Shown here: positions 1 to 40,303 of the stretch, piece by piece | How positions within the stretch are numbered: position 1 is the first letter of the stretch | How the letters are laid out: each line of letters starts with the position of its first letter | IMG/VR virus record: IMGVR_UViG_3300031616_000015 | Location: 1 to 40,705 of that record | Direction: 5' to 3' (one strand) | DNA: 40,705 bases | From: a virus | Made by a program: the position numbers and the translations under genes | The notes under the pieces: model-generated | What the model saw: the letters and a program-made list of their open reading frames with translations, nothing else | Told to the model about the DNA's origin: nothing | The model's database searches: none

Positions 1-450
1 AAGCTTCTGACGGATCAGCCCGTGCCGGGAGACCCGAACAAGACGCAGAGCATCTACGTCGCCACCCTCACCGTGCTCGGATCCGAATCCGTCACCGTGG
101 TCTCTCCGGCCACCGAGAAGGATGGCAAGAGCTATCCCGAGTCGTCGGAGACCTTCCTCACGCCGTTCACGTGGGAGAACTGGTACGCCTACGGTCGGGG
201 CATCGAAGTGAAGCTGTCCGGCCTCGAGAAGGCAGGGAAGCCGATGCTTCTCGGCGTGGTCAAGCGCTGCCCGACAGGCTCCGGCTACAAGGCGGGCGAA
301 ACCGTGGAGACGACCGCGAAGAAGTGGACGGACTACCGTGCCGCCATCCTCGCCGGACGCGACCCGGCGAAGCCTCAGTTCTCTTGGGGCATCGTGGACC
401 CGACTCCGGATCAGCGCGCTGTCGCGCTCGCCTGGTATCGCGGCCAGTAA
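1..450 (+). CDS. Hypothetical protein. This is the C-terminal part of a CDS that crosses the window junction. The full gene is 40384..40578 joined to 1..450 on the circular map, about 214 aa.
   Basis: The frame of track ORF 22..450 stays open back to base 1. It is the same frame as the stop-free reading from ATG 40384 to the window end. Bases 1-127 duplicate 40579-40705. Confidence 0.6.
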   Translation, partial: KLLTDQPVPGDPNKTQSIYVATLTVLGSESVTVVSPATEKDGKSYPESSETFLTPFTWENWYAYGRGIEVKLSGLEKAGKPMLLGVVKRCPTGSGYKAGETVETTAKKWTDYRAAILAGRDPAKPQFSWGIVDPTPDQRAVALAWYRGQ

Positions 451-5197: not shown

Positions 5198-5203
5198 GTC
5201 TTC

Positions 5204-5389
5204 CTACCTTTCGGGCGGGTAGCCGTAGGTGACCGGGGTAACGACCGTGCTCGTGGTCGCGGGGGTCGGCGTTGCCCCGCTGGCCGATGCTCGCACGCTC
5301 AGCGCCAGGATGACTAGGGCAATGACGACTGAGGCAACGGAAGCGAAGGTGGCGATGGTCGCGTACCAGTGCCACGGACCTTTTCCCAT
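5204..5389 (-). CDS. Small membrane protein (61 aa: MGKGPWHWYATIATFASVASVVIALVILAL... with a Thr/Pro-rich tail)
   Basis: Internal ATG 5389 of track ORF 5204..5572. From this ATG onward third-position GC is high. The upstream part of the long ORF is Ser/Arg-rich and looks off-frame. Confidence 0.5.
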   Translation of the reverse strand: MGKGPWHWYATIATFASVASVVIALVILALSVRASASGATPTPATTSTVVTPVTYGYPPER

Positions 5390-24402: not shown

Positions 24403-24642
24403 TCAGGCCCTTCCGTGCTTCTCGATGAACTTGTGAGCGTACATTTCGGCTTCGGCAAAGGTGGCCTCTACGCGAAGAACCTCACCATTCGGATGCTGCA
24501 CATACCAGTCACAACGCGAGAACTTCGAAGCGCCGTAGTTTGCGCGAACGATCTCGAATCCGGTTGCCTTGTCCAGATAGTGACCAGCCTTGACGCGCCG
24601 AAACTTGATCGGTTCCTGGCTGGCCGTTCCGCTCTCCGTCAT
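24403..24642 (-). CDS. Hypothetical protein (79 aa), leaderless; first gene of the cassette between terminase and portal
   Basis: Track ORF. ATG 24642 sits 7 nt after the -10 box of the 24650-24678 promoter. Confidence 0.6.
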   Translation of the reverse strand: MTESGTASQEPIKFRRVKAGHYLDKATGFEIVRANYGASKFSRCDWYVQHPNGEVLRVEATFAEAEMYAHKFIEKHGRA

Positions 24643-24649
24643 GTCAACT

Positions 24650-24678
24650 ACACTACGGCATCGAGCCTAGCGTGTCAA
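24650..24678 (-). promoter_or_regulatory. Promoter TTGACA-N17-TAGTGT followed by AGTTGAC-ATG (leaderless)
   Basis: The - strand reads cCTAGTTGACAcgctaggctcgatgccgTAGTGTagttgacATG. The TAG of the upstream box (24679-24681) is the terminase stop codon. Confidence 0.6.
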
Positions 24679-26013
24679 CTAGGCGAAGCGAACGCGCGTC
24701 ACGCCGTGCAGGTCGAGGTCGGCGACCACGTACCGCGCCGCGTCCATCGAGTCATCCTCGTCCTTGTGAGGCACTTCCTTGCTGGGCTTACCGTCCGCCG
24801 TCATTTCCCACACGTAGCCCTCGATCTCCTGTGCGAAGCCGATCGGCTTGCCAGCCTCGACCATCGACTCATCGCGAGAGACCAGCGAATCGCGGCACAC
24901 GTACAGCCGTGGCTTCCCGTCCGGCTGCACCCGTAGCCGCGCCGCCACGGCCTGCAAACCATCGCTGACGGTCTTCTGGGCGGGCACAGTGCCCATGCCT
25001 AGGTGGCGCTCGAGCGTGGCCCGGTCTTCAGCATCGTGGTCACAGACGATGGCACGCGGCTTCGGATACTTCCACGTCACCCCGTCCGCTTTCGTGACCA
25101 CCTTCAGGATCTCTTTCGCGTGATCCTCGACCAGCGTCTTGGTGCGGTAGATCTCCTTCTCGAGCCACAACCGGCCGTCCGGATCGATGGCCCACATCTG
25201 CCACACGAACGGGTGCGTATAGCCAAAGTCGACACCCCATATACGCGTCCACTCGTGGGGCAACACCTTGCGGTCAGAGAGGTGCACCTCTGGCCGCCAG
25301 TCCTCGTAGATCATGCCCTCTGCTGCGGCCCAGCGCCCGTATCGCAGACGTTCCTTACGCACCCCGGTAAGGGCGTCCAGCTTCTCGATGTACGCCTTAC
25401 CGCGCGCTGTGAGCCTGCCGCTCGGATCGAACAGGACGGGGTTGTCCTCATGCCGTGAATACAGCATGGTCGTCTTACCGTCATCGCACCGTTTCTTCAG
25501 CCAGTGCGAAGGCTGCTGCGGATTGCAGTCGGCAAGCAATTGCTGTGTCGGAATGCGCCCGTTGCGCAATCGGGAGGTGATCATCTCCCAATCGTTGAGC
25601 GTCAGTTCTGTCGCTTCCTGCACGTAGGCGCAGTCGTATTCCGAGGACATGATTTTCATGGGCTTGTCCATACCGCCGACCGACACGGTACTGCCATTCG
25701 AGTAGCGGAATGCGGCAGGCTCGGAGCCGCTACCGCCATACCATTCGACGATGCCCGTCTCCAGCGCCTCAGGCAGTACGTGCTCGCGGAAGGTGACGAG
25801 TCCCGTGTTCGTCAGTGAGACGTGCGTCTTGCGCACCATGAGTACGCGCACGCTGTCGGTGCTCAGGCAGCGCGCGTGGATGCGCTCGAGGATCCCGCGC
25901 GACTTCCCCGTGCCCGCCGCGCCAGCCAGCAAGACTTCCGGCTCACGCCGCTTGAATAGTTCGAGCGCTGCCCCGCGTGCACGGTAACAGCGCTCGATGA
26001 TCTTTCCCGCCAT
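24679..26013 (-). CDS. terL: Terminase large subunit (444 aa)
   Basis: It has a Walker A motif (GAAGTGKS), a Walker B-like motif (YDCAYVQEATE) and a C-terminal nuclease-like region (WGVDFGYTHPF...DEDDSMDA). Confidence 0.9.
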   Translation of the reverse strand: MAGKIIERCYRARGAALELFKRREPEVLLAGAAGTGKSRGILERIHARCLSTDSVRVLMVRKTHVSLTNTGLVTFREHVLPEALETGIVEWYGGSGSEPAAFRYSNGSTVSVGGMDKPMKIMSSEYDCAYVQEATELTLNDWEMITSRLRNGRIPTQQLLADCNPQQPSHWLKKRCDDGKTTMLYSRHEDNPVLFDPSGRLTARGKAYIEKLDALTGVRKERLRYGRWAAAEGMIYEDWRPEVHLSDRKVLPHEWTRIWGVDFGYTHPFVWQMWAIDPDGRLWLEKEIYRTKTLVEDHAKEILKVVTKADGVTWKYPKPRAIVCDHDAEDRATLERHLGMGTVPAQKTVSDGLQAVAARLRVQPDGKPRLYVCRDSLVSRDESMVEAGKPIGFAQEIEGYVWEMTADGKPSKEVPHKDEDDSMDAARYVVADLDLHGVTRVRFA

Positions 26014-26023
26014 GCCGACTAGT

Positions 26024-26212
26024 CTACGGCCGATCCCCCACCATGAGCATTCCGGGCTTCGTGAGATGCGGAATCAGGACCTTCGCGTCCTTCAGTTGTG
26101 CGAGCCTGTTCGGGCGAAAGCCACTTCCGTCTCCGTCCAGCCACTCCACTCCAGAGCCAAAGCCGAAAACCCATTCCGCGTCTCGCAACGCGGCCTCACT
26201 CATCTTTGTCAT
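26024..26212 (-). CDS. Small protein (62 aa from the second ATG: MTKMSEAALRD...), a member of the MGM(N/T)K cassette family
   Basis: Track ORF 26024..26218. The second ATG (26212) lies 7 nt after the TAGGCT -10 box, so I prefer a leaderless start there. Confidence 0.5.
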   Translation of the reverse strand: MTKMSEAALRDAEWVFGFGSGVEWLDGDGSGFRPNRLAQLKDAKVLIPHLTKPGMLMVGDRP

Positions 26213-26218
26213 ACCCAT

Positions 26219-26253
26219 AGCCTAGTTGACATCCCATCAGGATGTCAACTAGG
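26219..26253 (-). promoter_or_regulatory. Palindromic operator/promoter: CCTAGTTGACATCC-catca-GGATGTCAACTAGG, then TAGGCT (-10) and ATGGGTATG
   Basis: 14-bp perfect inverted arms read directly at 26221-26253. On the - strand, TTGACA (26243-26248) is followed by N18 and then TAGGCT (26219-26224). Confidence 0.55.
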
Positions 26254-26265
26254 CCAGCAAGATTG

Positions 26266-26364
26266 TTACGGCTTGCGCCTGCACGTTCCCAGGAACTCTG
26301 CGAACGTCCCTACGAACGCGCCGATCACGAGCCCTAGCGCAATGTGCATGATGAGCAGCGTCAC
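26266..26364 (-). CDS. Possible micro-protein with one TM segment (32 aa: VTLLIMHIALGLVIGAFVGTFAEFLGTCRRKP)
   Basis: Hand translation. Third-position GC is high (about 27 of 32 codons end in G/C). There is no clear SD, and ATG 26349 is an alternative start. Confidence 0.3.
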   Translation of the reverse strand: MTLLIMHIALGLVIGAFVGTFAEFLGTCRRKP

Positions 26365-26539
26365 GGCCGATGCCCGGTCAGTACGCCGCGTACACGGCCG
26401 TGTGGCCGCGCCCAGTACGGAGCTACGGCTTCCACCACGGTCTCTTGGGTGTGCCGCTGGTTCCGTGTGTGGTGTTCTTCGGTTTCTTCGGCTTGCGAGG
26501 TGGGATTGCCCCGCCCGCCAACGGTTTCTTCGGCACCCA

Positions 26540-26917
26540 TCAGCCGATCCGCTTGTACGAATCGATGCTGTTGTTGAACGGCGAAGCCATCGAACCGGAC
26601 GAGTTGGCGTAGATCAGGCCACGCGTACCGGCGCACCCGACACCGGTCCACACGTAGTACTGATGGTCGGTGCGGTTCCAGATGTAAGACGTCTGGCCAC
26701 CGTAGCCGCCCAGCGCCAGGCACTCGCCGGGGGACGTGTCAGCGTCGTCGTGGTCGACCATCGGGTACCACGAGCCAGACGTGTCGAAGAAACAGATGGC
26801 GTCTGCCGTACACACACCTACGGCCTGCGCGGGTTGAGCGGCCAGGAGGGTCAACCCCAACGCGAGGCACAACACTCCGAAGACCGCGAGCGCCTTGTTC
26901 GTGAACCGATTGATCAT
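26540..26917 (-). CDS. Secreted small protein (125 aa) with a signal peptide. It resembles the peptidase-inhibitor I36 / beta-gamma-crystallin-like family.
   Basis: GGAGG SD before ATG 26917. The signal peptide is ...LALGLTLLAAQPAQA|VG. The Cys pattern and the motifs ICFFD, SYIWNRTD, GCAG and FNNSIDSYKRI resemble actinobacterial I36-family proteins (from memory). Confidence 0.65.
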   Translation of the reverse strand: MINRFTNKALAVFGVLCLALGLTLLAAQPAQAVGVCTADAICFFDTSGSWYPMVDHDDADTSPGECLALGGYGGQTSYIWNRTDHQYYVWTGVGCAGTRGLIYANSSGSMASPFNNSIDSYKRIG

Positions 26918-26947
26918 CTTTCCTCCAGTGAGACAGGTCGGAAAAGA

Positions 26948-26989
26948 GCACGGGACCTAAGCATCCCACACCCATCGTGCACTTGTCAA
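26948..26989 (-). promoter_or_regulatory. Promoter for the secreted-protein gene: CTAGTTGACA-N17/18-(G)GATGCT, followed by a 24-nt conserved leader
   Basis: The - strand reads cgaCTAGTTGACAagtgcacgatggGTGTGGGATGCTTAGGTCCCGTGCtc...GGAGGaaagATG. The 24-nt block recurs inverted at 27791-27814. Confidence 0.45.
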
Positions 26990-27047
26990 CTAGTCGATCG
27001 GACAGAGAACGCGCCCCGAGGGGCGCGCCTCGCGTTCCTCCTGTCGA

Positions 27048-27233
27048 TCAGGCAACCACCACCCCGGCGTCCGTACGAACGATCAGGCCCATGTCTTCCA
27101 GCTTGCACAGGGAGTTGATGTTCATTCCTGCAACGCGGTGGTGGAAGTCTGCAATCGAGCCGACCTCAACGAGCTTCGCGAGGGTCTTGTTGTCGGTGGC
27201 GGAAAGCTTCGGGGCCTTGCTCGTCTTGTTCAT
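27048..27233 (-). CDS. Small protein (61 aa from the second ATG: MNKTSKAPKLSATDNKTLAKLVEVG...LEDMGLIVRTD); possible winged-helix DNA binder
   Basis: Track ORF 27048..27239. The second ATG lies exactly 7 nt after the TAGGCT box. The first 33 nt are identical to those of 27493..27720. Confidence 0.55.
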   Translation of the reverse strand: MNKTSKAPKLSATDNKTLAKLVEVGSIADFHHRVAGMNINSLCKLEDMGLIVRTDAGVVVA

Positions 27234-27239
27234 ACCCAT

Positions 27240-27273
27240 AGCCTAGTTGACATGCCCGAGCATGTCAACTAGG
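27240..27273 (-). promoter_or_regulatory. Palindromic operator/promoter: CCTAGTTGACATGC-ccga-GCATGTCAACTAGG, with TAGGCT as the -10 box
   Basis: 14-bp perfect inverted arms at 27242-27273. On the - strand, TTGACA (27263-27268) is followed by N17 and then TAGGCT (27240-27245). Confidence 0.55.
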
Positions 27274-27296
27274 TGGGCAGGAATTCCTCAAGATTT

Positions 27297-27491
27297 TCAG
27301 GCAATCAAGTCCCTGACTTCGATCCACCAATGGTGACCCTGGCCGTTCTTTTCGCGATATACCTTGGGGGCCTTGATCCACTCCAACTCCCACCAACCAC
27401 GCTCGTTCATGCCTTCCATGGGCTTGACGAGTCGGGCAGTACCTACCCGGCGGTACTGAATCATCGCGCCGGGGATCAACTTCGCTGTCAC
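27297..27491 (-). CDS. Hypothetical Trp-rich protein (64 aa)
   Basis: Track ORF. Its GTG start lies 1 nt after the stop of the upstream gene. Confidence 0.5.
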   Translation of the reverse strand: MTAKLIPGAMIQYRRVGTARLVKPMEGMNERGWWELEWIKAPKVYREKNGQGHHWWIEVRDLIA

Positions 27492-27492
27492 G

Positions 27493-27714
27493 TCACACCG
27501 CCCGGTAGTACGTCTCGGTGAACTGCTGGCCGTTCAGGACACGGGAGTCGACCGTGAGCCGGTTCTCCCGAGTGACGATGCCCTTCTTGGCGAGCGCGTA
27601 GATCGCGGCGAGGTTTCCACCTGCGAAGCGGTAATCCGTCTCACTCATCTCGATCGTACCCAGGATTTCTAGAGCCTTGGCTTGAGTCTTGGGGAGTGCG
27701 CTCGTCTTGTTCAT
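27493..27714 (-). CDS. Small protein (73 aa from the second ATG: MNKTSALPKTQAKALEILG...LAKKGIVTREN); possible winged-helix DNA binder
   Basis: Track ORF 27493..27720. It has the same leader, N-terminus and promoter geometry as 27048..27233. Confidence 0.55.
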   Translation of the reverse strand: MNKTSALPKTQAKALEILGTIEMSETDYRFAGGNLAAIYALAKKGIVTRENRLTVDSRVLNGQQFTETYYRAV

Positions 27715-27720
27715 ACCCAT

Positions 27721-27753
27721 AGCCTAGTTGACACCCCCGAGGATGTCAACTAG
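27721..27753 (-). promoter_or_regulatory. Imperfect palindromic operator/promoter: CCTAGTTGACACCC-ccga-GGATGTCAACTAG, with TAGGCT as the -10 box
   Basis: Read directly. On the - strand, TTGACA (27744-27749) is followed by N17 and then TAGGCT (27721-27726). Confidence 0.55.
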
Positions 27754-27772
27754 AACGAGGAAGATTCTTCGG

Positions 27773-27814
27773 TTGACAACATGTCAACTAGTGTGGGATG
27801 CTTAGGTCCCGTGC
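27773..27814 (+). promoter_or_regulatory. Candidate + strand (antisense) promoter: TTGACA-N17/18-(G)GATGCT plus the same 24-nt block as 26948-26971
   Basis: The sequence reads ggTTGACAacatgtcaactagtGTGGGATGCTTAGGTCCCGTGCc. Its geometry is identical to the - strand promoter at 26948-26989, but it points into the antisense of genes 27826..28427. Confidence 0.35.
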
Positions 27815-27825
27815 CTGATTCCGGC

Positions 27826-27957
27826 TCAGGCGTTGAGCGGACCGTGCTCGCCCGCATAGTCACACGCGAGGCAGACTCGCACGCCGTGATCGGCCAGAGG
27901 GACCAGCCCCCGCGCGCACCACTTGCAGATCTCACGGGCCGCGCGCGCCACGCTCAC
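27826..27957 (-). CDS. Zinc-ribbon micro-protein (43 aa: VSVARAAREICKWCARGLVPLADHGVRVCLACDYAGEHGPLNA). It is below the ORF-track cutoff.
   Basis: Hand translation. The GTG start makes a GTGA overlap with the stop of 27954..28427. It carries two CxxC pairs. Confidence 0.55.
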   Translation of the reverse strand: MSVARAAREICKWCARGLVPLADHGVRVCLACDYAGEHGPLNA

Positions 27958-28427
27958 GCCAGGTCCTCCGGAGCCACGCCCTCGATCGAATACTTCACGG
28001 TCGCGGTGGTTTCGGTCTTCGTGGCCGCATCGAGCCCGAGGCGCGTCGCGAGCGTGTTATCCGCCTTCAGTGCGGTGGCGAGCGCTCGATCCCGAGCGGC
28101 GTAGTCGCGCACGATCGCGCCAGTCTCGGGGTCGTACAGGATGTTGCCGTCCTTGCCCACGGCCACCGGCGCGCCAGCCATCTCGACCATCGCCACGGCC
28201 TGATCCTTGACGTACTTGATCAGCTCGATGGATTCCTGAATCAGCTCAGCACGGTCGATCGGCGGAATGGAATCGCGAACGTCTTTCTCGATCTGAGCAA
28301 CACGCTGTTGCGAGATTCCGTAATGCTCGGCGCACCATGCCTGCGTCTTGCCACGCAGTGAGATCCATCGCCAGATCTCTCCGTTGCGACCTTCAAGCTT
28401 GGTTTCGTCTCCCGGACGCCCAGCCAT
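27954..28427 (-). CDS. HTH DNA-binding protein (157 aa); candidate small terminase subunit
   Basis: Internal ATG 28427 of track ORF 27954..28457. The HTH-like segment is GKTQAWCAEHYGISQQRVAQIEKDV. Its size and position upstream of terL fit a small terminase. There is no other candidate of suitable size. Confidence 0.55.
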   Translation of the reverse strand: MAGRPGDETKLEGRNGEIWRWISLRGKTQAWCAEHYGISQQRVAQIEKDVRDSIPPIDRAELIQESIELIKYVKDQAVAMVEMAGAPVAVGKDGNILYDPETGAIVRDYAARDRALATALKADNTLATRLGLDAATKTETTATVKYSIEGVAPEDLA

Positions 28428-28434
28428 AAGTTGA

Positions 28435-29025
28435 TCATCCGCAACTAGAGTTGACAAGCCACGTTTTCAACGCTTTGAAAGAAAGCGCCGAGAGTGGCAA
28501 TTCTGGACCCCATGTCCATACGCTCGACCACTTCCATTCGAGCTTGGAAGCGGGAGACGAGTAGACGGCGCACGCGCGGTTTCGCGTCATCGCGTGACGG
28601 CCGAAGCGAAGACCGATCGAATGCGTCATTTGGAGCGGCCTCCCTGTCGATGCGTGCGTGTTGTTGCCGCAAGCATACCCCCGGCGCACCTCCCATCCGC
28701 AACCTTCCGCCAGTGCCTGCAACTTGAGCACGGACGCGGGCCACGGGAAGTCGGGCACGACATCCGCACGGGAGCTGATCAGCGGCGCGGGGAACACCTC
28801 GATCTCAACCTCACGCGCAACGTACGTGCCCATCGGGTAGCCGACCACAGGCCTGTACGCGCCAGCCTCGCCGCCGCGTCCGGCTACCTCGAGACACGCA
28901 CCGCACCGTGCCACCCGAGCGCGCTCCGGCGTGCACAGGGCATCGTTCGCACCGCACGAGGTGCACCGTGCCCACACGAGGTGGGATGCGGGCACCTCGC
29001 GCGGCTCTTCAAAGTCAAGCGTCAC
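28435..29025 (-). CDS. Hypothetical protein with an N-terminal Cys4 motif (196 aa; CTSCG...CGAC)
   Basis: Track ORF with a GTG start in an operon of overlapping genes. Confidence 0.55.
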   Translation of the reverse strand: MTLDFEEPREVPASHLVWARCTSCGANDALCTPERARVARCGACLEVAGRGGEAGAYRPVVGYPMGTYVAREVEIEVFPAPLISSRADVVPDFPWPASVLKLQALAEGCGWEVRRGYACGNNTHASTGRPLQMTHSIGLRFGRHAMTRNRACAVYSSPASKLEWKWSSVWTWGPELPLSALSFKALKTWLVNSSCG

Positions 29026-29278: not shown

Positions 29279-29793
29279 GGGATCTCCTCTGGGTCTCTAG
29301 CGGCCAGCACGGACACTTCCACGCCCGCCTTCTCGCCGTTCCGTGCCCACCGTTTCCACGTTCCTCGACTGCCGATGACAAGCGAATCATCTTTGATCAG
29401 ACCCGACTGGGTAAGCGCATCCAGTAGGTTTCTGAGTAGCTTGTCCCAATCACCAATGTCGATGGATGTGGGATGGTCGACATCGTGCGAAGGCCATAGT
29501 TCGCCTGCCACGCCAATCTGCCGATGGAAGCGGAACACGCATTCGATTTCGACTGCCCCGGCGTACGGTTCGGGCTCGAATCCGAGGACCTTGTTGCCAG
29601 CCTTGACGGGCGTGATTCCGAACTGTTTGCGGATGTGCCGCACCATCGCGTTCTTCCACGGCACCGCGAATTTGCCGGATTCCACGAGATGCACGACCAT
29701 CCGGCCGCCCTTGCCCCGCGACAGTTCGGGAGTGAGCGACCCCTTCGTGTGGGGCCGCCCCTCCACGAAGAATCGGGCGAGAGGTTCGCTCAC
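29275..29793 (-). CDS. rusA: RusA-family Holliday junction resolvase (172 aa)
   Basis: The N-terminal FFVEGRPHTKGS and the DIGDWDKLLRNLLDALTQSGLIKDDSLV block match the RusA pattern (D-x-D-N/K...D-a-l...DD), recalled from memory. Confidence 0.7.
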   Translation of the reverse strand: MSEPLARFFVEGRPHTKGSLTPELSRGKGGRMVVHLVESGKFAVPWKNAMVRHIRKQFGITPVKAGNKVLGFEPEPYAGAVEIECVFRFHRQIGVAGELWPSHDVDHPTSIDIGDWDKLLRNLLDALTQSGLIKDDSLVIGSRGTWKRWARNGEKAGVEVSVLAARDPEEIP

Positions 29794-29987
29794 TTGACCG
29801 GGAACAGCTTGTCAAGTTCCCGGTCCTTGAGCCGTTCCGCCCGGATCGAGCCGCGCAGCGTCAGTCCGCCGTTCTCCCCGATCAAGCCCGCGTTGAACAG
29901 TTGACGCATTTCTGGCCCGATCGCCCGCGTTGCCGCCCCGACGTGGTACCCGAGCGCGTCCTTGAGCAGTTCATCGTTTGTTCTCAT
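29790..29987 (-). CDS. Small protein (65 aa), leaderless; possible winged-helix-like DNA binder
   Basis: Track ORF. ATG 29987 lies 7 nt after the -10 box of the 29995-30023 promoter. It has a GTGA overlap with rusA. Confidence 0.6.
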   Translation of the reverse strand: MRTNDELLKDALGYHVGAATRAIGPEMRQLFNAGLIGENGGLTLRGSIRAERLKDRELDKLFPVK

Positions 29988-29994
29988 GTCAACT

Positions 29995-30023
29995 ACCCTA
30001 GTCGCTCAGGTCTGGCATGTCAA
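29995..30023 (-). promoter_or_regulatory. Promoter TTGACA-N17-TAGGGT followed by AGTTGAC-ATG (leaderless)
   Basis: The - strand reads tCTAGTTGACAtgccagacctgagcgacTAGGGTagttgacATG. The TAG at 30024-30026 is the stop codon of the upstream gene. Confidence 0.6.
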
Positions 30024-30836
30024 CTAGAACAGGAAGGTTTTGTCCTGCCAGACGTTCAACGCCGACTTCAGTTCAGCGGCGTACGCCGCGTACGCCTCAG
30101 GGTCGTGGATGGCGGACTTGATCGGCTCTCCGCACCTCCACGTACCACCTGGATGGATAACCTGCTTCGTGCACAAATGATTCAATGACGGCTCAAAGTC
30201 GTGTACCCCGCGCCCATGCCCCTCGTATGTCCGTACGAGCACCGTGTAAGCCGCTGAGGCGTCCTGTGCCGCGTTGACGGGCGCGCCCCCGACTCGGGTA
30301 CCCGCCTCGCCCGAAAGCCGCTGTACAGCCGCCTCAAGGGCCGCAACGCGCAACCTCAGGTCTTCCACGTCCGTACGAGATGCGGGCAGGGGCGTGAAGT
30401 TCGCCAGCAGGACCTTCGTGTCCCGTGCGATGTCCTCGACCAGAGCGGCTTCATGAGCGGCCAGGAGAACAGCATTCCGCGCCTGGCCCAGCGTTCCACC
30501 CCGGCGTACGCGCCATGCCCGAACTGTCTTCGCCCACGAGCCACGTTCGCCCGGACGCAGCGTCTCGCCTTCGGCGATCCATTCCACGTACCGGTATGCC
30601 AGTCGTTCGTCTTCGGCCAGGAGGCGCACCGTGGCACGCGACCGGCCGCCCCAATCCATGTCGCTGTGAACCACGCGCACCCGTTCCGCCCATTCGCCCG
30701 CCTGGCGGCATCCCCGGCACGTGGCGTCCGCCAGCCGGTTGGTCCGCATCTCGTGGTAGCCGAGCGGCAGTCCGCACGCGTTGCCCCACAAGCCTCCCGT
30801 TTCCCGTACCAACGCTCCAAGGTGAATCTCGTTCAT
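30024..30836 (-). CDS. Hypothetical protein (270 aa) with an N-terminal Cys motif and a central coiled-coil-like segment
   Basis: Internal ATG 30836 of track ORF 30024..30887, preceded by gagaggcgagag (SD-like). It is the first gene downstream of the iteron/box region. Confidence 0.6.
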   Translation of the reverse strand: MNEIHLGALVRETGGLWGNACGLPLGYHEMRTNRLADATCRGCRQAGEWAERVRVVHSDMDWGGRSRATVRLLAEDERLAYRYVEWIAEGETLRPGERGSWAKTVRAWRVRRGGTLGQARNAVLLAAHEAALVEDIARDTKVLLANFTPLPASRTDVEDLRLRVAALEAAVQRLSGEAGTRVGGAPVNAAQDASAAYTVLVRTYEGHGRGVHDFEPSLNHLCTKQVIHPGGTWRCGEPIKSAIHDPEAYAAYAAELKSALNVWQDKTFLF

Positions 30837-30894: not shown

Positions 30895-30943
30895 CGTCAA
30901 CTACCTACCCATCATGTCAACTAGGAATCTCTCGTGTCAACTA
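30895..30943 (-). repeat. Three direct TAGTTGAC(A/G) boxes phased at exactly 20 bp
   Basis: On the + strand the boxes read cgtcaacta (30895-30903), tgtcaacta (30915-30923) and tgtcaacta (30935-30943). Confidence 0.7.
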
Positions 30944-30983
30944 CTATTTTTCATAGAGATCCTGATCTTGAGGACTGGCAAAA

Positions 30984-31186
30984 GTACGCACGGTACGCAC
31001 GCGCCCCCTCCTAGGGTCGGGGGCGCTGGTACGCACTTACCGTCAGCCGGTATGCACCCCGGTACGCACCGGTACGCACCGCAGGTCAGAGGCGGTACGC
31101 ACTTGGTACGCACGGTACGCACCCCCGGTACGCACCCCGGTACGCACTGCCTTTTTGATCTTGGAGTGCGTACCGCAGTGCGTACC
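30984..31186. repeat. Iteron array: 11 direct copies of (G)GTACGCAC plus 2 inverted copies (GTGCGTACC); candidate replication origin or regulator-binding array
   Basis: Direct copies are at 30984, 30992, 31028, 31049 (GGTATGCAC), 31061, 31071, 31094, 31105, 31114, 31127 and 31139. Inverted copies are at 31166 and 31178. A GC hairpin (31001-31026) lies inside the array. Flanks are AT-rich and both carry TGATCTTG (30963, 31156). Confidence 0.85.
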
Positions 31187-31195
31187 TGCGACTAT

Positions 31196-33445
31196 TCACT
31201 CTTTTTTGGACATCTCGGACTCATGTTCGGCGATGACCAGAGGATCGGACGAAAAGCGGGCACCCCCGACATTGGTGATCAGTTCACGCTTAAACGCCCG
31301 ATCCCATCCCGTATGCCACGTTTGCTTCAACAGCCGCTCAGTCACCCCGCCGTAGAAGCGCTCGATTACCACAGTCCGCGCTTCCGCCTTCGTGAGTCCG
31401 CGACTCTCTCCGTGATCGGACAAAACGCGCACAATCAGATCAGTGACGGAGTCCGAATGCCTCTGCCAGTCCTCGCCACTTCTCCCAGCCGCCGCATCGC
31501 CTTCGGCCACCTTCCACGCATCCGGCTCAAGCACGAGGGACGTCACGTCCTCGCCGTCCTCATCCTGGCCGACCACCACGCGTGTGAAGACGAGCGTCAT
31601 GGGTGCGCGCTCGTCGATGTCCTTCTGTTTCTCCACGAGCAGTTGACCCCGCAGCGTGCCACCCGGAGCCGTCTCGTCCTTGACGACCTTGAGCTCCGTG
31701 TCCTGCGCTCCGTCGATGGCGGAACTACCCCTGGCATCGCCGCCCTTGCGCCCGGTGTGATGCACGGTGAGCACACACGCGCCCGTGGCCTGCCTCAACG
31801 CCTCCACAGCGGCGATGTAGTACCCCATGTCGGTGGCGTTGTTCTCCTCGAGGCCCACCGTCACCCGAGCTTGGGTGTCCATCACGATGAGGCACGGCAG
31901 GGATTGCCCGTCTGGCCCGTTCAGCAGCCTCCTGGCCGCCTCAACGAGCACTGCCCACTTCTTCCCGTCCGCGCTCTGTACGGGCCGTGGGAGCACGTAC
32001 ACGCCGTCCGGCAGGCCACCGTGCGCCTTCTCGTACGCCCGTACCCGCTTGCCCATGCCGCCCGCCCCCTCTGCCGCCACGATGAGCACGCGGGCCTGCG
32101 TAGTCTTCAACCCCTGCCACGGCTTGCCCGCCGCTACGTGCATGGCCATGTCCAGCGCCACGAAACTCTTGCGGGATCCGGGCGCGCCGATCAACCACGC
32201 CGCACTGTCGAGGTTCAGCAGCTCTTTGATCAGCGGTTGCGGCGGTGGGCGCTTGGCCACCTGATCGAGCGAGAGCATTTCGGCCAGTAGGGCGTCGACT
32301 TCATCCCCCGTAGGCACCGAAGACACGCCCGGAATGTCCTGCGTACCGCCCTTGACCTGCGGTGCGTACTCAGTGCGTACCTCTGCGATCCACGGGTCCA
32401 GCGAGGCTCTGCGTCCGTCCAGCACCGCCCTGAACTTCTCCACGGTCCACCTCGAGGCCGGGTGCGACTCGTCGTAAGCGGTCATCGCCAGTTGACGACG
32501 CAACAAGGCCATGGCCTCGTCGACATCCCAGAAGGCGGGCACGAAGTGGGCCAGCGTGACGGCCGCGTTGTTGCACCGATCCTCGATCATCCCGAGCGGC
32601 GCGGCTGCCAGGTCCATCAACGGTCCGCGTACGTGTGCCTGTGCCTGCACGAACGTGAAGCCGCGCGTCTCGACCGCCACCCCCGCCGCCGCCATTCCGG
32701 CCATCGAAGGTGAGGCGAACGGATCATCGGCATCCACGCCACCGCCCTTGACCCTCCTGGCCGCATCATTGCCCGCACCCGCGCGTGCCACCCTTACCAG
32801 CGCCACGATGTGCTCGCCGCTGTCGTCTGAGGATGTGCCGTCCTCTCGCCTGAACTCGGCCAGGAAGCCCGTATCCGGCTCACGCACCCACCGGTAGGGG
32901 TGCAGCTCCCCCATCGTCTCGGGGGCCTTGCTGGGACGCACCGTGGGCGAGATGAACGCGAAGCCGCGTCCCTGCCCGTCCGCCCCGCCCCCTTGCAGGT
33001 CCATGCCCGACAGGAATCCAGCGGATCGATGCTCACCCGTGGGGCTGATCAGTTCGTGCGTCCCGCCCGATGGCGTGCTCTGCGTCCCGAACGATCGGGG
33101 CATCCACCCCCGGTTGTCCAGATCTTCGCGCGAAATGTCCCCGCCGTGGCGGGGGTCGAAGTCCAGCATGTCCGCCCCGCCGGACTCGCGTACCCCGCCG
33201 ACCATCGCGAGGGCGTAGCCCGGTCGCCACCGTTCCAGCCAGGCCGTACGTGACGGTACGGTGCGCTCCCACTGTTTGGGGAGGTAGTACTCCCCCGGTT
33301 GCCACGGATTCGGTGCCGCGCAGAACACCGGTATGCCCGCGTCGATGAGTTCCCCGGCTATCTCCAGCGCCCGCGCCGTCTCCTCGTCCGTCAACGGATT
33401 GATCACAACGGAATTGATCACAACGTCTTGTACTGATTCGCCCAC
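31196..33445 (-). CDS. Bifunctional primase-polymerase (prim-pol) fused to a RecA/RepA-type replicative ATPase (749 aa)
   Basis: The N-terminal segment AGIPVFCAAP...ALAMVGG...DMLDFDPRHGG resembles bifunctional prim-pol domains. The central Walker A (LIGAPGSRKS) and LIVAAEG / VLTVHHTGRKG blocks resemble AAA_25/RepA-like ATPases. Confidence 0.85.
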   Translation of the reverse strand: MGESVQDVVINSVVINPLTDEETARALEIAGELIDAGIPVFCAAPNPWQPGEYYLPKQWERTVPSRTAWLERWRPGYALAMVGGVRESGGADMLDFDPRHGGDISREDLDNRGWMPRSFGTQSTPSGGTHELISPTGEHRSAGFLSGMDLQGGGADGQGRGFAFISPTVRPSKAPETMGELHPYRWVREPDTGFLAEFRREDGTSSDDSGEHIVALVRVARAGAGNDAARRVKGGGVDADDPFASPSMAGMAAAGVAVETRGFTFVQAQAHVRGPLMDLAAAPLGMIEDRCNNAAVTLAHFVPAFWDVDEAMALLRRQLAMTAYDESHPASRWTVEKFRAVLDGRRASLDPWIAEVRTEYAPQVKGGTQDIPGVSSVPTGDEVDALLAEMLSLDQVAKRPPPQPLIKELLNLDSAAWLIGAPGSRKSFVALDMAMHVAAGKPWQGLKTTQARVLIVAAEGAGGMGKRVRAYEKAHGGLPDGVYVLPRPVQSADGKKWAVLVEAARRLLNGPDGQSLPCLIVMDTQARVTVGLEENNATDMGYYIAAVEALRQATGACVLTVHHTGRKGGDARGSSAIDGAQDTELKVVKDETAPGGTLRGQLLVEKQKDIDERAPMTLVFTRVVVGQDEDGEDVTSLVLEPDAWKVAEGDAAAGRSGEDWQRHSDSVTDLIVRVLSDHGESRGLTKAEARTVVIERFYGGVTERLLKQTWHTGWDRAFKRELITNVGGARFSSDPLVIAEHESEMSKKE

Positions 33446-34231: not shown

Positions 34232-34312
34232 AATGTCACCTTTCCGTACGATTCATGCCCGATGCTGCGGCACGGTACCGCCGGACGACACCCACCGTAC
34301 CCTGCGGACTAG

Positions 34313-34341
34313 TTGACAGGCAACCCCCCACCGACTACGGT
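34313..34341 (+). promoter_or_regulatory. Promoter TTGACA-N17-TACGGT followed by AGTTGAC-ATG (leaderless)
   Basis: The sequence reads aCTAGTTGACAggcaaccccccaccgacTACGGTagttgacATG, with the ATG at 34349. Confidence 0.6.
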
Positions 34342-34348
34342 AGTTGAC

Positions 34349-34525
34349 ATGAACATGCCGCAGAGGGCCACGGTCCTCGACTTCCTCAGGTTCTTCCTGG
34401 CCGCGCTGATGCTGCTCACCACCATCAACCTCGCGACCAATCAGGACGGCTTTCTGGATTCCTTCCTCACTGGTCTTGCCGCCGCTGCCACTATCGCTCT
34501 GATCCGTGGGGGTCTCCAGAAATGA
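34349..34525 (+). CDS. Small membrane protein with two TM segments (58 aa, MNMPQRATVLDFLRFFLAALMLLTTINL...)
   Basis: In frame with track ORF 34313..34525. ATG 34349 is positioned for a leaderless transcript. It has an ATGA overlap with the next gene. Confidence 0.55.
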   Translation: MNMPQRATVLDFLRFFLAALMLLTTINLATNQDGFLDSFLTGLAAAATIALIRGGLQK

Positions 34526-35644: not shown

Positions 35645-35648
35645 CTAG

Positions 35649-35678
35649 TTGACACGCCGCGTACCTACCGACTACTGT
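35649..35678 (+). promoter_or_regulatory. Promoter TTGACA-N18-TACTGT followed by AGTTGAC-ATG (leaderless helicase gene)
   Basis: The sequence reads gCTAGTTGACAcgccgcgtacctaccgacTACTGTagttgacATG, with the ATG at 35686. Confidence 0.6.
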
Positions 35679-35685
35679 AGTTGAC

Positions 35686-37554
35686 ATGGAGATTACGTTG
35701 GACCCGATGGCCATCCTGCGCCCGTATCAACGGGACGCGATCGATCACCTGTGGAAGTCGTGGGACGCGGGCATGACGCGCGTCCCGATGGTGCTCGCCA
35801 CGGGCCTCGGTAAAACGAAGATCTTCACGCGTGTCGTGCACAAGTGGCTCACCGAGAACGGAAGCAAGCGTGTGCTCGTCATCGCGCACACGGATGAGCT
35901 GATCTCGCAGGCAGCCGCAGAAATGCGTGCCGCCAACTCCGGGATCGCGGTCGGCATCGTCAAGGCTGGACTGAACGAGACGCACTGCCGGATCATCATC
36001 TCGTCTCGTCAGACTCTCGCTTCCGAAAAGCGTCGTGCACAGTTGAAGCGTGTCGGTCTGATCATCATCGATGAGGCGCATCATGCCGTTCGCACGAACA
36101 CGTACGGCAAGATCCTCGAGCACTTCGGCGCGTTCCCCTCGCCGTGCTCCTCATGCTCTGAGGGATTCAGCGGCGATCAGGCGGTACCGGGAGGGCAGTG
36201 CTGGGATTGTCAGGGGACCGGGCTCTACAACGGCGGAGAGACTGCCGTCAAGGTTCTCGGATTGACCGCGACTCTTTCGCGTGGCGACAAGGCGAAGCTC
36301 TCCACGGTGTGGGAGGACAAGCCCGTCCCGACCTTCCGCAAGGACATCCTGTTTGGAATCCGCAACGGCTTCCTGCTCGATGTGCGTGGCGAGCGTGTCA
36401 TCGTTCCCGACCTGAACATGAAGAACGTCAAAACGCAGGGTGGTGATTTTCAGGATGCGAGCATCGCGGAAGAGTTGGAACGCACTTTCGCACCGCAGAT
36501 TGTTGCGGAAAAGTACGCGACCGTGGCAAGGAAATCAGGAAGCAATGAGTTACGTCAGGGGATTGCGTTCTGGCCGTTGGTGGATACTGCCTACCATGGC
36601 GCGCAAGCTTTCAATGATGCGGGCATCTCGTCTGCGGTCATCCACGGTGGTCTACCGAAAGAAGAGCGCAAGCTCATCTTGAAGCGGTTTCAGGCTGGCG
36701 AGATAACCGTTGTCCACAATTGCATGGTGCTGACGGAAGGCTTCGACGCGCCGTGGGCAGACGTGGTGGTGATCGGTCGCCCGACACGCAACGGTGGCCT
36801 GTATCAGCAAATGGTCGGGCGCGTGCTGCGCCCTGATCTGACCGTTGAGGCGAGCCTGCGCGAGAAGGCACTCATCCTCGATGTCACGGGTGCAGGCGCG
36901 GACAACGATCTACGCTGCCTGATCGACCTCGCGCCGGAGCGTCCGCTGAGGAAGCATGACGACGACGATGAGGACTTCTCGCTACTCGATCTCGAGCTAG
37001 AGCTAGAAGAGTCCATCGCCAGCGGCGCGGCACCGTGGCTCGTGGAGGAGATCTACGAAGGGCCTGCTGACACCAAGGCGTTCGATCCTCTTCACCGAAC
37101 TTTGGCGTGGAATCAGACTCCGGACGGCACGTACTTCATGAGCGCCGGGGGCAGCCATTACATCTTCCTCGGTGAGTCCGCGTACGGCGATCCTGGCACG
37201 TACGACGTGGTGTGGTGCACGAAGGTGGATTGGAACACCCCGCCGCAGTCGGCGGGCTCGACCGACTACCGCGCCCTGCCGCTGGAAGAGGCGCTGCTGT
37301 GGGCGGAGGAGGAAGCGATCTCGCGTGGCGGGCACGGCGCGAAGACGCTGTCATCGCGTAAGAGTAAGTGGCGTGACGAGCCTGCCACTGAAGGGCTGAA
37401 GAGCAAGGCTCGCGCGAACGGCATCCGCAACAACAAGGCGACCGGTCGTGATCTGGACACGATGACAAAGGGTGAGCTGGGCGAATTGATCGACGCGAAG
37501 ATTGCAGCCAAGAGTATCGATCCGCTCGTACGCAGACTGAAGGGAACGCGGTAA
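35686..37554 (+). CDS. Superfamily 2 DEAD/DEAH-box DNA helicase (622 aa)
   Basis: Motif I is LATGLGKT, motif II is IIIDEAHH, motif III is LGLTATLSRGD and motif VI is QQMVGRVLR. Confidence 0.85.
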   Translation: MEITLDPMAILRPYQRDAIDHLWKSWDAGMTRVPMVLATGLGKTKIFTRVVHKWLTENGSKRVLVIAHTDELISQAAAEMRAANSGIAVGIVKAGLNETHCRIIISSRQTLASEKRRAQLKRVGLIIIDEAHHAVRTNTYGKILEHFGAFPSPCSSCSEGFSGDQAVPGGQCWDCQGTGLYNGGETAVKVLGLTATLSRGDKAKLSTVWEDKPVPTFRKDILFGIRNGFLLDVRGERVIVPDLNMKNVKTQGGDFQDASIAEELERTFAPQIVAEKYATVARKSGSNELRQGIAFWPLVDTAYHGAQAFNDAGISSAVIHGGLPKEERKLILKRFQAGEITVVHNCMVLTEGFDAPWADVVVIGRPTRNGGLYQQMVGRVLRPDLTVEASLREKALILDVTGAGADNDLRCLIDLAPERPLRKHDDDDEDFSLLDLELELEESIASGAAPWLVEEIYEGPADTKAFDPLHRTLAWNQTPDGTYFMSAGGSHYIFLGESAYGDPGTYDVVWCTKVDWNTPPQSAGSTDYRALPLEEALLWAEEEAISRGGHGAKTLSSRKSKWRDEPATEGLKSKARANGIRNNKATGRDLDTMTKGELGELIDAKIAAKSIDPLVRRLKGTR

Positions 37555-39106: not shown

Positions 39107-39387
39107 CCATGGTCGGACATCCCGACGTCGTGCACTGCACGCGTACCTACTCACCGGTCGTGACTCACTACTACGGGCGTCTGAGCAACGGGCACTTCTT
39201 CTACTTCACGTACCGGTTCGGCCGCGTCACGCTGGCCGTGGGTTCCAGCAAGGTCGCTACGGACGGTCGGCATGATGTGGTGATGGCGCACGGCGCGGCC
39301 AGACAGGGCAACTTCGCTAGCGATCAAGTCCGTGACCAGGTGTTCTCTCACCTCTACAATCTCCTTCAAGAAACTTCGCTCAACTAG
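39103..39387 (+). CDS. Hypothetical protein (94 aa)
   Basis: In frame with track ORF 39070..39387, with a GTG 39103 coupled start. Its TAG stop (39385-39387) is part of the next CTAGTTGAC box. Confidence 0.5.
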   Translation: MTMVGHPDVVHCTRTYSPVVTHYYGRLSNGHFFYFTYRFGRVTLAVGSSKVATDGRHDVVMAHGAARQGNFASDQVRDQVFSHLYNLLQETSLN

Positions 39388-39416
39388 TTGACGCGGTGGC
39401 CAGCAGCGACTAGTGT
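39388..39416 (+). promoter_or_regulatory. Promoter TTGACG-N17-TAGTGT in front of a non-coding RNA locus
   Basis: The sequence reads aaCTAGTTGACGcggtggccagcagcgacTAGTGTtcttctcACGGGGG. No ATG follows. The predicted start is near 39424. Confidence 0.55.
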
Positions 39417-39423
39417 TCTTCTC

Positions 39424-39654
39424 ACGGGGGAGGTCAAGCCCTCAGGGCAAGGAACGGCACGGAAGTTCTCGGGACTCCTGAGGAGAAGGCGATTGAGTCG
39501 CGCCTCAGGCTCGCACCCGAGAACGTGCACCCACCACGGGAGTTCGTCAGGAATACCGTAGGGTCAGAGTATCTGGCGATGACGACACGGAAAGACGTGT
39601 GGCCCCCGCGCTTCGGCGCATGGCGCAATGCAGGTTCGAATCCTGCGAGGGGCG
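39424..39654 (+). ncRNA. Structured RNA of unknown class ending in a tRNA-like T-arm/acceptor minihelix (39602-39654). It is not a canonical tRNA.
   Basis: The T-arm GCAGG-TTCGAAT-CCTGC lies at 39630-39646. The 3' strand GAGGGGC (39647-39653) pairs with GCCCC (39602-39606). There is a GCGC-TTCG-GCGC hairpin at 39608-39619. Upstream long-range pairings are CCTCAGG 39440 / CCTGAGG 39477 and GTTCTCGGG 39465 / CCCGAGAAC 39516. The antisense ORF contains the AGFEPA signature typical of tRNA antisense. Confidence 0.4.
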
Positions 39655-39829
39655 CGAAGGTGTGACGCACCTAGTTTTGGCAGTAGCCGTTTACGACGAG
39701 TGTCACATCTTCACGGGAGCAAGGAATCGGCAGGCCCAATTTCATATCGGCAGTGTGCGGAACTATCCCGCAGAGACGCTCGTCCCCTGATGCGACACTA
39801 ACGCGGTTAGACGCAGAAAGTGACGCTAT

Positions 39830-40069
39830 ATGGATCGGCTACGTACTGACGGGACCCATAGCACGGATGTGATACGACTTGCGCGAACGTTTAACTCGTT
39901 CGGCTCCCACGTGGCAGCAGACAAAGAGCCGATGATCCTCCGCTTGATTCGAGCGGCCAGGAAGCAGAAGGCGGAGCAGACACGCAAGCTTCCGCCCGTC
40001 AAGAACGCGAAGGAGGCTCGCATCGTCAAGGGAGCGAAGCGCACGCATGGTGGAGGTGCCGACAACTAG
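39830..40069 (+). CDS. Hypothetical basic protein (79 aa) between the two RNA genes
   Basis: Track ORF with moderately GC-rich third positions and no clear SD. Confidence 0.45.
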   Translation: MDRLRTDGTHSTDVIRLARTFNSFGSHVAADKEPMILRLIRAARKQKAEQTRKLPPVKNAKEARIVKGAKRTHGGGADN

Positions 40070-40123: not shown

Positions 40124-40196
40124 GCCCCATATAGCTTAACGGTAGAGCGCTCCGCCCGATACGCGGGAAGACAAGGGTTCGAATCCCTTAGGGGCA
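40124..40196 (+). tRNA. tRNA-like gene, 73 nt, with tentative anticodon GAU (Ile) and irregular features
   Basis: T-arm is AAGGG-TTCGAAT-CCCTT. D-arm is GCTT-AACGGTA-GAGC. The anticodon stem is TCCGC/GCGGG with loop CCGATAC. The acceptor stem has only 5 G-C pairs plus mismatches, position 33 is C rather than U, and no CCA is encoded. Confidence 0.55.
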
Positions 40197-40303
40197 CGGC
40201 GCAAGTACCCGAGGTCACGCTCTCGCACTGTGACAGCGAGTCAAGGGGAACGCACCGCCGAGGACGGAAGGCATAGGCCGTGACAGTCCGGAGAGACGGA
40301 CGC

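Follow-up and report, generated by a model that had tools for sequence, protein, structure and literature searches.

IMG/VR virus record IMGVR_UViG_3300031616_000015, analysed here over its whole length of 40,705 nucleotides (hereafter the window), is a circularly closed assembly of a complete phage genome of ~40.58 kb, in which positions 1-127 equal 40579-40705 (a 127-nt terminal overlap). It has a G+C content of 61.5% and comes from an uncultured soil actinophage lineage. Between the terS-like gene and terL of this phage, three near-identical cassettes (c1, c2, and c3) are present on the minus strand, in each of which a promoter-like sequence runs into the start codon of a small gene. With moderate confidence, these cassettes can be regarded as copies of the standard leaderless promoter of the phage, in a form embedded in a hairpin, which punctuate the accessory genes between terS and terL.

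Architecture of the Cassettes

As had been reported in a preliminary description of the window, the cassettes lie at 26210-26253 (c1), 27219-27273 (c2), and 27700-27753 (c3), and 34 nt are identical between c2 and c3 (27219-27252 = 27700-27733). On the minus strand they read CCTAGTTGACATCCTGATGGGATGTCAACTAGGCTATGGGTATG, CCTAGTTGACATGCTCGGGCATGTCAACTAGGCTATGGGTATG, and (T)CTAGTTGACATCCTCGGGGGTGTCAACTAGGCTATGGGTATG, respectively; the first bases of c3, previously given as CCTAG, are in fact TCTAG. Each cassette has a distal box and a proximal, inverted one, and the inverted arms are indeed perfect in two of the three copies, c1 (15 nt) and c2 (14 nt), c3 being imperfect.

In c1 (26210-26253), the -35 hexamer TTGACA (26248-26243) is separated by an 18-nt spacer from the -10 hexamer TAGGCT (26224-26219); the inverted box occupies 26223-26231, and the discriminator ATGGGT precedes a predicted leaderless ATG at 26212-26210. 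The c2 promoter (27231-27273) has TTGACA at 27268-27263, a 17-nt spacer with the inverted box at 27244-27252, TAGGCT at 27245-27240, and the ATG at 27233-27231. The c3 promoter (27712-27753) has the same elements at 27749-27744, 27725-27733 (again in a 17-nt spacer), 27726-27721, and 27714-27712. Cassette c1 heads a unit comprised of p62 (26024-26212; a 62-aa ORFan) and terL (24679-26013), c2 is predicted to drive p61 (27048-27233; 61 aa), and c3 is predicted to drive p73 (27493-27714; 73 aa) together with p64 (27297-27491; 64 aa), all of them on the minus strand. The GTG start codon of p64 lies 1 nt past the p73 stop codon, and p64 is presumably co-transcribed from c3. With regard to terL, which lacks a Shine-Dalgarno (SD) sequence, its ATG (26013) is located 10 nt past the p62 stop codon and is preceded by TAGACT plus 7 nt (window 26013-26040), a -10-like leaderless geometry with no -35; coupling to p62, the variable small gene at the head of the unit, may be needed for its translation.

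In c1-c3, TAGGCT is followed by ATGGGT and then by ATG, and the A of this second ATG is the seventh base after the -10 hexamer, as had been described. No SD sequence is found ahead of these start codons; the leadered gene p125 of the same region has GGAGG. An AUG 6 nt past TAGGCT without an SD, the sequence signature of a leaderless gene, is thus present in three of three cassettes. The signature of a promoter for the primary sigma factor is found as well, since TTGACA is exact in c1-c3 and in six further promoters, and TAGGCT fits TANNNT at a distance of 17-18 nt. The earlier reading of these elements as -35, -10, and leaderless second ATG was borne out by the enrichment of the geometry over shuffled sequences and by its retention in ~40 promoters of related phages. 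In Streptomyces avermitilis, leaderless mRNAs amount to ~22% and prefer AUG, with the promoter consensus TANNNT/BTGACN (PMC8780764), and the c1-c3 promoters match the leaderless pattern of Streptomyces. The first codons shared by the small genes (M-N-K-T-S), on which the preliminary description had remarked, do belong to the cassette identity, while common ancestry accounts for them only in part, a preference for A-rich leaderless starts contributing to the likeness. Leaderless ORFs (open reading frames) of the window and of L005-L101 favour M-T/N/A and then K/N/E (ATGAC., ATGAA., ATGGCGAA).

Conservation of the Promoter and Replacement of Its Genes

Pattern scans of IMG/VR led to L001 as the sole true relative, L002-L004 being unrelated (chance or other elements). 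One of the latter, contig L004 (IMGVR_UViG_3300036833_000092), contains at 8800-9200 dense tandem 10-nt units resembling TTGACATGAC, many of them in the form TAGTTGACATGACTTGAC. The sister genome L001/L005 is a single 22.9-kb contig that is 89.6% identical to the window across the aligned region. A scan based on terL recovered many uncultured relatives; those with 64-95% terL identity include L005, L006, L007, L009, L010, L011, L016, and others. The nearest cultured phages, Thermobifida phage P1312 and Streptomyces phage Dagobah, share 54-57% terL identity, and DNA searches of the phage collection gave no match beyond terL and no nucleotide-level relative among cultured phages.

The pattern (C)TAGTTGACAtctggacta-N7-8-TAG(A/G)CT-N6-ATG is present in many copies in the relatives with 64-95% terL identity, in which the leaderless spacing is strictly kept and the genes behind these promoters lack an SD, and exact TAG(A/G)CTATGGGTATG was found in L006 (9051), L007 (1633), and L009 (3147). 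A search of related phages for the cassette itself, as had been proposed, shows that the sister genome keeps all three copies and that the wider clade keeps the promoter, not the second box. Relatives carrying the clade promoter lack TGTCAACTA, and this second box is therefore specific to the lineage of the window and L001. Between the window and L001, the boxes and the segment from the -10 to the ATG show 0 changes in ~99 nt, and the nucleotides between the boxes vary.

The gene behind c2 has been exchanged. In the sister genome, identity extends up to ATGGGTATGA, is lost through the entire ORF, and is back at GAGGAACGCGAGG just before the terminator; the replacement ORF in L001/L005 encodes 62 aa with a sub-threshold KOW match and is unrelated to p61. 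This terminator-like GC hairpin (27002-27030, minus strand; stem 27028-27009) has a T-rich tail and follows p61, and a C:G pair of its stem is G:C in the sister genome, a compensatory change. A common 3′ linker, TGAAAATCT(T)GAGGAA, is found both after p64 and after the KOW-like ORF of L001.

In L005, L006, L007, L016, and L100, the gap between terS and terL is filled by 1-5 small units, each a promoter with an ORF, whose content is unrelated; in L009 it has a leadered box only. In Dagobah and P1312, no gap separates terL from the gene ahead of it. In all, 44 leaderless small ORFs fall into 39 similarity groups, 32 of which are singletons. The gap had been considered an unusual place for regulatory genes; it is instead a clade-wide hypervariable slot of accessory genes, and nothing marks these as regulators. 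Morons are promoter-gene-terminator units inserted between conserved phage genes, a concept that stems from lambdoid phages. The slot genes are accessory and moron-like: their content differs between conserved neighbours in the five relatives above, and a promoter is predicted for every unit, while a terminator-like hairpin with a T-rich tail follows p61 alone. For the other units, the hairpins embedded in the promoters may serve as terminators.

A leadered unit separates c2 from c1; in it, p125 (26540-26917) has a signal peptide and a weak match to peptidase inhibitor I36, and a 32-aa hydrophobic ORF occupies 26266-26364; both are conserved in L001. An I36-like gene is also present in L100, immediately after terL.

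The 9-mer Box across the Genome

The box TAGTTGACA had been described as a feature of the three sites, but it is distributed genome-wide and is part of the promoters of the helicase gene, the RusA-terS operon, and the structural operon. It has 18 exact copies in the window against 0.06 expected from dinucleotide shuffles (28 against 3.8 when up to one mismatch is allowed), and all 18 exact copies are intergenic or touch merely a stop or start codon. The promoter pattern TTGAC[AG]-16..19-TAnnnT has nine matches (0.83 in shuffles), all of which have the prefix CTAG. With the start codon defined in the shuffle test as ATG or GTG 5-8 nt past the -10, eight of the nine matches have an ATG 6-7 nt past the -10, against 0.15 expected. 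The box provides the -35 of at least nine promoters, which together head every major operon. Nearly all operons of this lineage appear to share a single consensus leaderless promoter, a clear and statistically well-supported case of how an uncultured actinophage lineage arranges its transcription.

At four further promoters, a second box is present in direct orientation as TAGTTGACA-N22-TAGTTGACATG, where it begins on the final T of the -10 and ends on the A of the start codon. One of them (24642-24681, minus strand) heads p79 and the structural operon, its distal box overlapping the terL stop codon. Another (29987-30026, minus strand) heads p65 and the operon that runs from RusA to terS. On the plus strand, 34310-34351 heads the rightward early operon, which begins with a 58-aa membrane-like ORF, and 35646-35688, with its boxes 32 nt apart, heads the helicase gene. 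The sequence AGTTGAC before the ATG is identical at these four of four TAnnGT-type promoters despite differing spacers, and relatives carry unrelated discriminators (ggtcttc, actggtc) at this position. The direct second boxes suggest a box-binding protein.

The box also occurs in several other arrangements. Upstream of a 287-aa gene, a triple direct box (30895-30943, minus strand) has its copies 20 nt apart, the third being TAGTTGACG, and its first box is located 18 nt from a CATGAT -10. A variant cassette on the plus strand (1683-1723), CTAGTTGACG-N14-TGTAAACTAG, has TTGACG as its -35, and its degenerate inverted box supplies the -10 (TAAACT); a 228-aa DUF6011 protein starts from the predicted leaderless ATG (1721). 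A second TTGACG variant is found at 39385 (CTAGTTGACG-17-TAGTGT). The ~440 nt that follow it (39385-39830) contain no convincing ORF and a T-loop-like GGTTCGAATCC at ~39626, and neither Rfam nor ARAGORN found anything in this stretch; a tRNA-Ile(GAT) lies at 40124-40197, and Rfam returned nothing beyond a tRNA.

The leadered p125 promoter (26939-26992, minus strand) has a single box (26984-26992), then 18 nt, GATGCT, and the conserved leader TAGGTCCCGTGC, with the GGAGG SD ahead of the ATG at 26917. An inverted copy of this promoter and leader is located at 27770-27823 on the plus strand (TTGACA 27772-27777, 18 nt, GATGCT, TAGGTCCCGTGC), antisense to p43 and terS; it abuts a further box at 27782-27790, so that an inverted pair spans 27770-27790. 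This copy is conserved in L001 and may yield an antisense RNA against the packaging genes. In L009 (3467), the promoter ahead of the leader TAGGTCCCGTGC points in the sense direction of terS.

An iteron-like array at 30983-31186, between the PrimPol/helicase gene (31196-33445) and the triple box, repeats GTGCGTACC 13 times (11 minus-strand copies, then 2 inverted) and is likely a replication origin or a binding array. At the same position past the PrimPol gene (~5040-5230), L100 apparently has an array of another repeat, to judge from its sequence context. The PrimPol/helicase gene belongs to the leftward set, which continues via RusA, the terS-like gene (27954-28457, leftward), terL, and the structural genes; the rightward genes, among which are those of a helicase and an exonuclease, begin at 34349. 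The ORFs scanned in the window yielded neither an integrase nor a repressor family, and the genome looks lytic. Integron attC-like sites were considered and set aside, their core RYYYAAC/GTTRRRY being unmatched by eye, and the likeness of the box to the DnaA box, DasR dre, PafBC, and CRP-like sites is presumably only partial.

Hairpins Embedded in Promoters

Folded as RNA, the cassettes of the window form hairpins of -30.8 (c1; z -7.0), -29.9 (c2), and -24.1 kcal/mol (c3). A second folding was carried out on the -35/spacer region of every regex-defined promoter in the window and its relatives, and c1-c3 reached -19 to -21 kcal/mol with z of -5 to -7. A sub-class of promoters was found in this way, whose members sit in a strong hairpin with the 3′ arm terminating at the CTAG/CTAC of the -10. 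In addition to c1-c3 of the window and c1-c3 of L005, it includes L007 1633, L026 1893, L100 6298, L100 9966, and L107 1278. The last four have the strongest stems among the relatives (-30 to -35 kcal/mol, z -6.7 to -8.9), and L007 1633 (-30.5 kcal/mol), which reads TAGGCTATGGGTATG, is the promoter nearest terL and thus the positional counterpart of c1. Weaker members are L016 9762 (-12.6 kcal/mol, z -3.8) and L013 4451 (-14.9 kcal/mol, z -2.9).

The arms of these hairpins are unrelated in sequence between lineages. The arms of the two L100 hairpins are related to each other and show a compensatory change, and the half-site spacing differs (~10 vs 16 nt by our count). Because related phages place stems of unrelated sequence at the same position, so that structure is conserved while arm sequence is free, the stem itself appears to be selected rather than a dimeric operator. 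Direct-second-box promoters inside long operons never form hairpins. In contrast to the non-embedded p125 promoter, which follows the canonical p61 terminator, c1-c3 follow gene ends without a separate upstream terminator, and for this reason they may be read as promoter-plus-insulator punctuation.

Small Proteins of the Slot

The three small genes behind the cassettes had been described as paralogs sharing a pattern of the type L..K...G(L/I)(I/V).R that would be compatible with a winged helix. For p61 and p73 the homology is real (34% identity, E 3e-7); for p62 the relationship falls away, since p62 is unrelated by sequence to the p73 family (hhalign probability <1%), and a homolog search with p62 returned only p62. 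For the product of 29790-29987 (p65), which had also been named for comparison, hhalign gave the same result, with no relation to the p73 family. No match was found in Pfam or PHROGs for p62, p61, p73, p64, or p65, and a word-indexed search with p73 returned only the query; an exhaustive profile search alone reached a family of nine small proteins. Repeat-rich proteins, phage tail fibres among them, were also matched in that search and were treated as motif-level or repeat-inflated and not as homologs. The helix 3-wing motif of p73 and p61 (L..L...GLIVRT..G.V) resembles a tail-fibre repeat unit (e.g., LHNLASNGIITRTGSGTV, 5-9 copies; P0007, P0011), which may reflect convergence or a shared module.

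For p73, an AF2 model built on the nine sequences has a pLDDT of 86.6, with all five models >81, and shows the topology H1-S1-H2-H3-wing, the wing being a beta-hairpin; it supersedes an earlier run with two sequences, in which one of five models was confident. Foldseek matches of p73 are nearly all winged-helix proteins (TFIIE-alpha, PadR, MarR, and SlyA) with TM 0.6-0.67 and weak E-values (0.013 at best), and a library of viral structures returned small phage HTH (helix-turn-helix) proteins; across both searches, E was 0.005 or weaker. In a test against curated families, MarR was the best match of the p73 family, at Pfam E 0.057 (two of the nine members) and PDB 2eth E 1.3, neither of which is significant; Pfam likewise did not return 'YjhX', the name given to P0017 by JGI. 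From the model, p73 is confidently predicted to be a winged helix, and the same prediction extends to p61 by homology.

In comparison with L001, dN/dS is 0.05 for p73, 0.25 for p64, and 0.37 for p62. Since these values are below 1, all three are taken to be real genes, and p73 in particular would be under strong purifying selection, as judged from the substitutions. Eight of the nine p73 homologs are preceded by a -10, 6-7 nt, and an ATG. In homologs from other lineages, helix 3 is near-invariant (GANLNAIDAL) and poor in basic residues, while the dyads ahead of the genes differ (CCCCAGACC/GGTCTGGGG in L100, TGACA/TGTCA in L101 and L108, and CGGCTATAGCCG in L105). Because helix 3 is invariant while the dyads differ, p73 is unlikely to read its own dyad.

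The protein p65 represents a conserved small-protein family (...GLIG..GGLT.KGS...) that is always located behind its own leaderless promoter upstream of RusA (window 29790-29987, L006 5435, L016 7649, L026 6056, and L009 795); in L009 it is duplicated in tandem inside one 151-aa ORF. The product of the terS-like gene (p167) bears an HTH with weak Sigma70_r4 and KorA matches and matched phrog_645. It is called terS-like because its position, the HTH, and phrog_645 support that name; tblastn detects no homology between p167 and the gene upstream of terL in Dagobah or P1312.

Interpretation and Alternative Explanations

In the reading that we favour, the host primary sigma factor would recognize the cassettes through the distal box as -35 (TTGACA) and TAGGCT as -10. 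From the geometry, we infer that the A of the second ATG is the first transcribed base, which would give an mRNA with neither a leader nor a ribosome-binding site. The proximal inverted box would pair with the distal box in a 13-18-bp stem, the 3′ arm of which ends exactly at the -10. Most likely, this stem would function in the RNA, as a hairpin of transcripts entering from upstream, perhaps as an insulator, a U-tract-less terminator, or a 3′-end stabiliser, and would keep each small unit transcriptionally separate. Together with the conserved 3′ linkers and the terminator, the cassettes would form conserved joints at which small genes with fast turnover are exchanged. In the lineage of the window, the 5′ arm may have slid onto the -35 box and thereby created the second box.

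Several results weigh against this reading. A generic sigma-70 promoter scan misses the c1-c3 promoters, TAGGCT agreeing with TATAAT at three of six positions. The stems are stable, but GGCTATGGGTATG and no U-tract comes next, and a terminator scan calls none of them an intrinsic terminator. Only the 9-10-bp boxes are invariant in the sister genome, which has not kept the inner extensions of the stems; this pattern would fit a sequence-specific protein site equally well. Moreover, three arrangements of the box are left unexplained by a hairpin, namely the second box in direct orientation at four promoters, the triple copy at 30895-30943, and the inverted pair at 27770-27790.

These observations lead to a tentative alternative, which has a real but smaller chance of being correct: a single phage or host protein could bind TAGTTGACA genome-wide, with the palindrome as a shared operator at which RNA polymerase is blocked and the timing of early, middle, and late genes is set. 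The second box would then lie in the spacer by the -10 (inverted, c1-c3), at -8 to +1 (direct), or in tandem (the triple). The four arrangements of box pairs, all at promoters, are on one helix face (centre to centre ~20-21, 31-32, and 20 bp); the direct second box is identical at four of four promoters with differing spacers; the boxes are invariant between the window and L001 while the inter-box nucleotides change; and the direct second boxes, the triple box, and the abutting inverted pair fit a factor binding a 9-mer better than a hairpin. Precedents are the sites of L5-type repressors (PMC9283540) and the Cluster O repeats (PMC4351075). On the other hand, no candidate protein was identified, nor was a repressor or integrase family among the scanned ORFs. 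The box spacing of c1 is 1 nt off that of c2 and c3, the distal box is the -35 anyway, and the same-position hairpins of other lineages, with their unrelated arms and the variable spacing in L100, favour structure over a dimeric operator. A regulator of this kind and a role of the hairpin can coexist.

The model of the preliminary description, in which p62, p61, and p73 were paralogous winged-helix repressors, each autoregulated through a private operator, has become improbable, and private autoregulation by the cassette proteins is unlikely. It does draw on the paralogy of p73 and p61, on the predicted winged helix of p73 and the strong purifying selection on it, and on the location of nearly every p73 homolog directly behind a strong promoter, often with a dyad. 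As a family of three it fails at p62, which is unrelated and without a homolog, leaving p61 and p73 as the only paralogs. The operators are not private either: the same 9-mer is present at nine or more promoters of unrelated genes, and c2 drives the KOW-like ORF in the sister genome. The almost invariant helix 3 with few basic residues, the lineage-variable dyads upstream, and the lack of a significant Pfam, PHROG, or PDB sequence match argue in the same direction, and a winged-helix fold does not imply DNA binding. A combination, in which TAGTTGACA is read twice, by sigma region 4 as the -35 and by p73/p61 on the second copy (in either orientation beside the -10 or the +1), with feedback from moron-like slot genes on the promoters of the whole genome and with the hairpins as fused terminator-promoter joints through which phages swap small genes as cassettes, is similarly doubtful.

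Two further explanations have very little probability. The boxes near terS could be packaging (pac/cos) sites for the HTH-bearing terS-like protein, comparable to the repeated sites that terminases bind beside their own genes, as they cluster between that gene and terL, with the tight inverted pair 27770-27790 directly downstream of terS and p43; however, boxes extend across 11 kb (24.6-35.7 kb) with variants at 1.7 and 39.4 kb, most copies have exact promoter geometry followed by an ATG, and relatives keep the promoter, not the second box. Equally remote is a MITE- or IS-like mobile element formed by c3-p73-p64-c2-p61 between the inverted repeats 26939-26971 and 27791-27823, a 33-nt repeat of 88% complementarity that flanks 819 nt. 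This mobile-element reading was rejected. The arms of the repeat are two opposed copies of one promoter's -10 and leader (GATGCTTAGGTCCCGTGC), with a TTGACA exactly 12 nt away from each, and in L009, a distant relative, this leader is likewise preceded by a promoter; in addition, no target-site duplication was seen by inspection, no transposase is present, and the sister genome has the same arrangement.

If the favoured reading of the cassettes as insulators and recombination joints is true, it would explain how ORFans slot into a late operon without disturbance, and strong leaderless promoters would be at hand as finished parts for use in high-GC hosts. Whether promoter control is based on structure or on a protein could readily be tested on the -35 box, duplicated as it is in two orientations.

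Comparison with Known Systems

A full-text literature search on TAGTTGACA and on leaderless conserved actinophage promoters returned nothing specific to these cassettes. Phage promoters of the conserved, leaderless SigA-like type are already known, as are dyad motifs in many copies and morons. What is new here, and of moderate interest, is the proposed use of hairpin-embedded promoters as joints of a hypervariable slot and the duplication of the -35 box in either orientation.

Conserved SigA-like promoters with predicted leaderless starts have already been described in actinophages (PMC4351075). The closest likeness is to the Cluster O mycobacteriophages, which have several conserved TTGACA/TAnnnT promoters per genome, some of them predicted to be leaderless, and more than 30 copies of a short dyad, a 17-bp repeat of unknown role (PMC4351075). 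In Cluster O, however, the dyad TGTTCGGNNNCCGAACA is a separate element and often intragenic (PMC4351075), whereas in the window the -35 box itself is repeated within the promoter, inverted or direct; neither the sequences nor the phages are related. The stoperators of Cluster A offer another parallel: repressors of the L5 type have more than 20 binding sites, asymmetric 13-mers located at promoters and between genes (PMC9283540). A short asymmetric site is likewise found at many promoters and intergenic spaces of the window, and its -35 copies are oriented with transcription. In contrast to a stoperator system, with its gp71-like repressor and 13-mers in one orientation, no gp71-like repressor or integrase was detected among the scanned ORFs of the window, and the second copies occur in both orientations.

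The slot resembles morons in its small, mostly ORFan genes with their own promoter (and, for p61, a terminator), located between terS and terL and variable in relatives. It differs in that the units use the consensus promoter of the phage and not a foreign signal, are arranged as a tandem array, and include one, headed by c1, that also feeds terL; prophage expression is not applicable to the window phage. Intrinsic terminators without a U-tract have been proposed for Actinobacteria, and their activity is disputed. The stems of the window (13-18 bp, -24 to -31 kcal/mol) are similar to intrinsic terminators in being located shortly past the stop codon of the upstream gene, but they have no U-tract and overlap the -35 and spacer of the next promoter. 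Finally, the H1-S1-H2-H3-wing model of p73 (TM 0.6-0.67) is similar to small phage winged-helix proteins of the MarR, PadR, and TFIIE-alpha type, from which p73 is set apart by a helix 3 poor in basic residues and by having no significant membership in any of these families.

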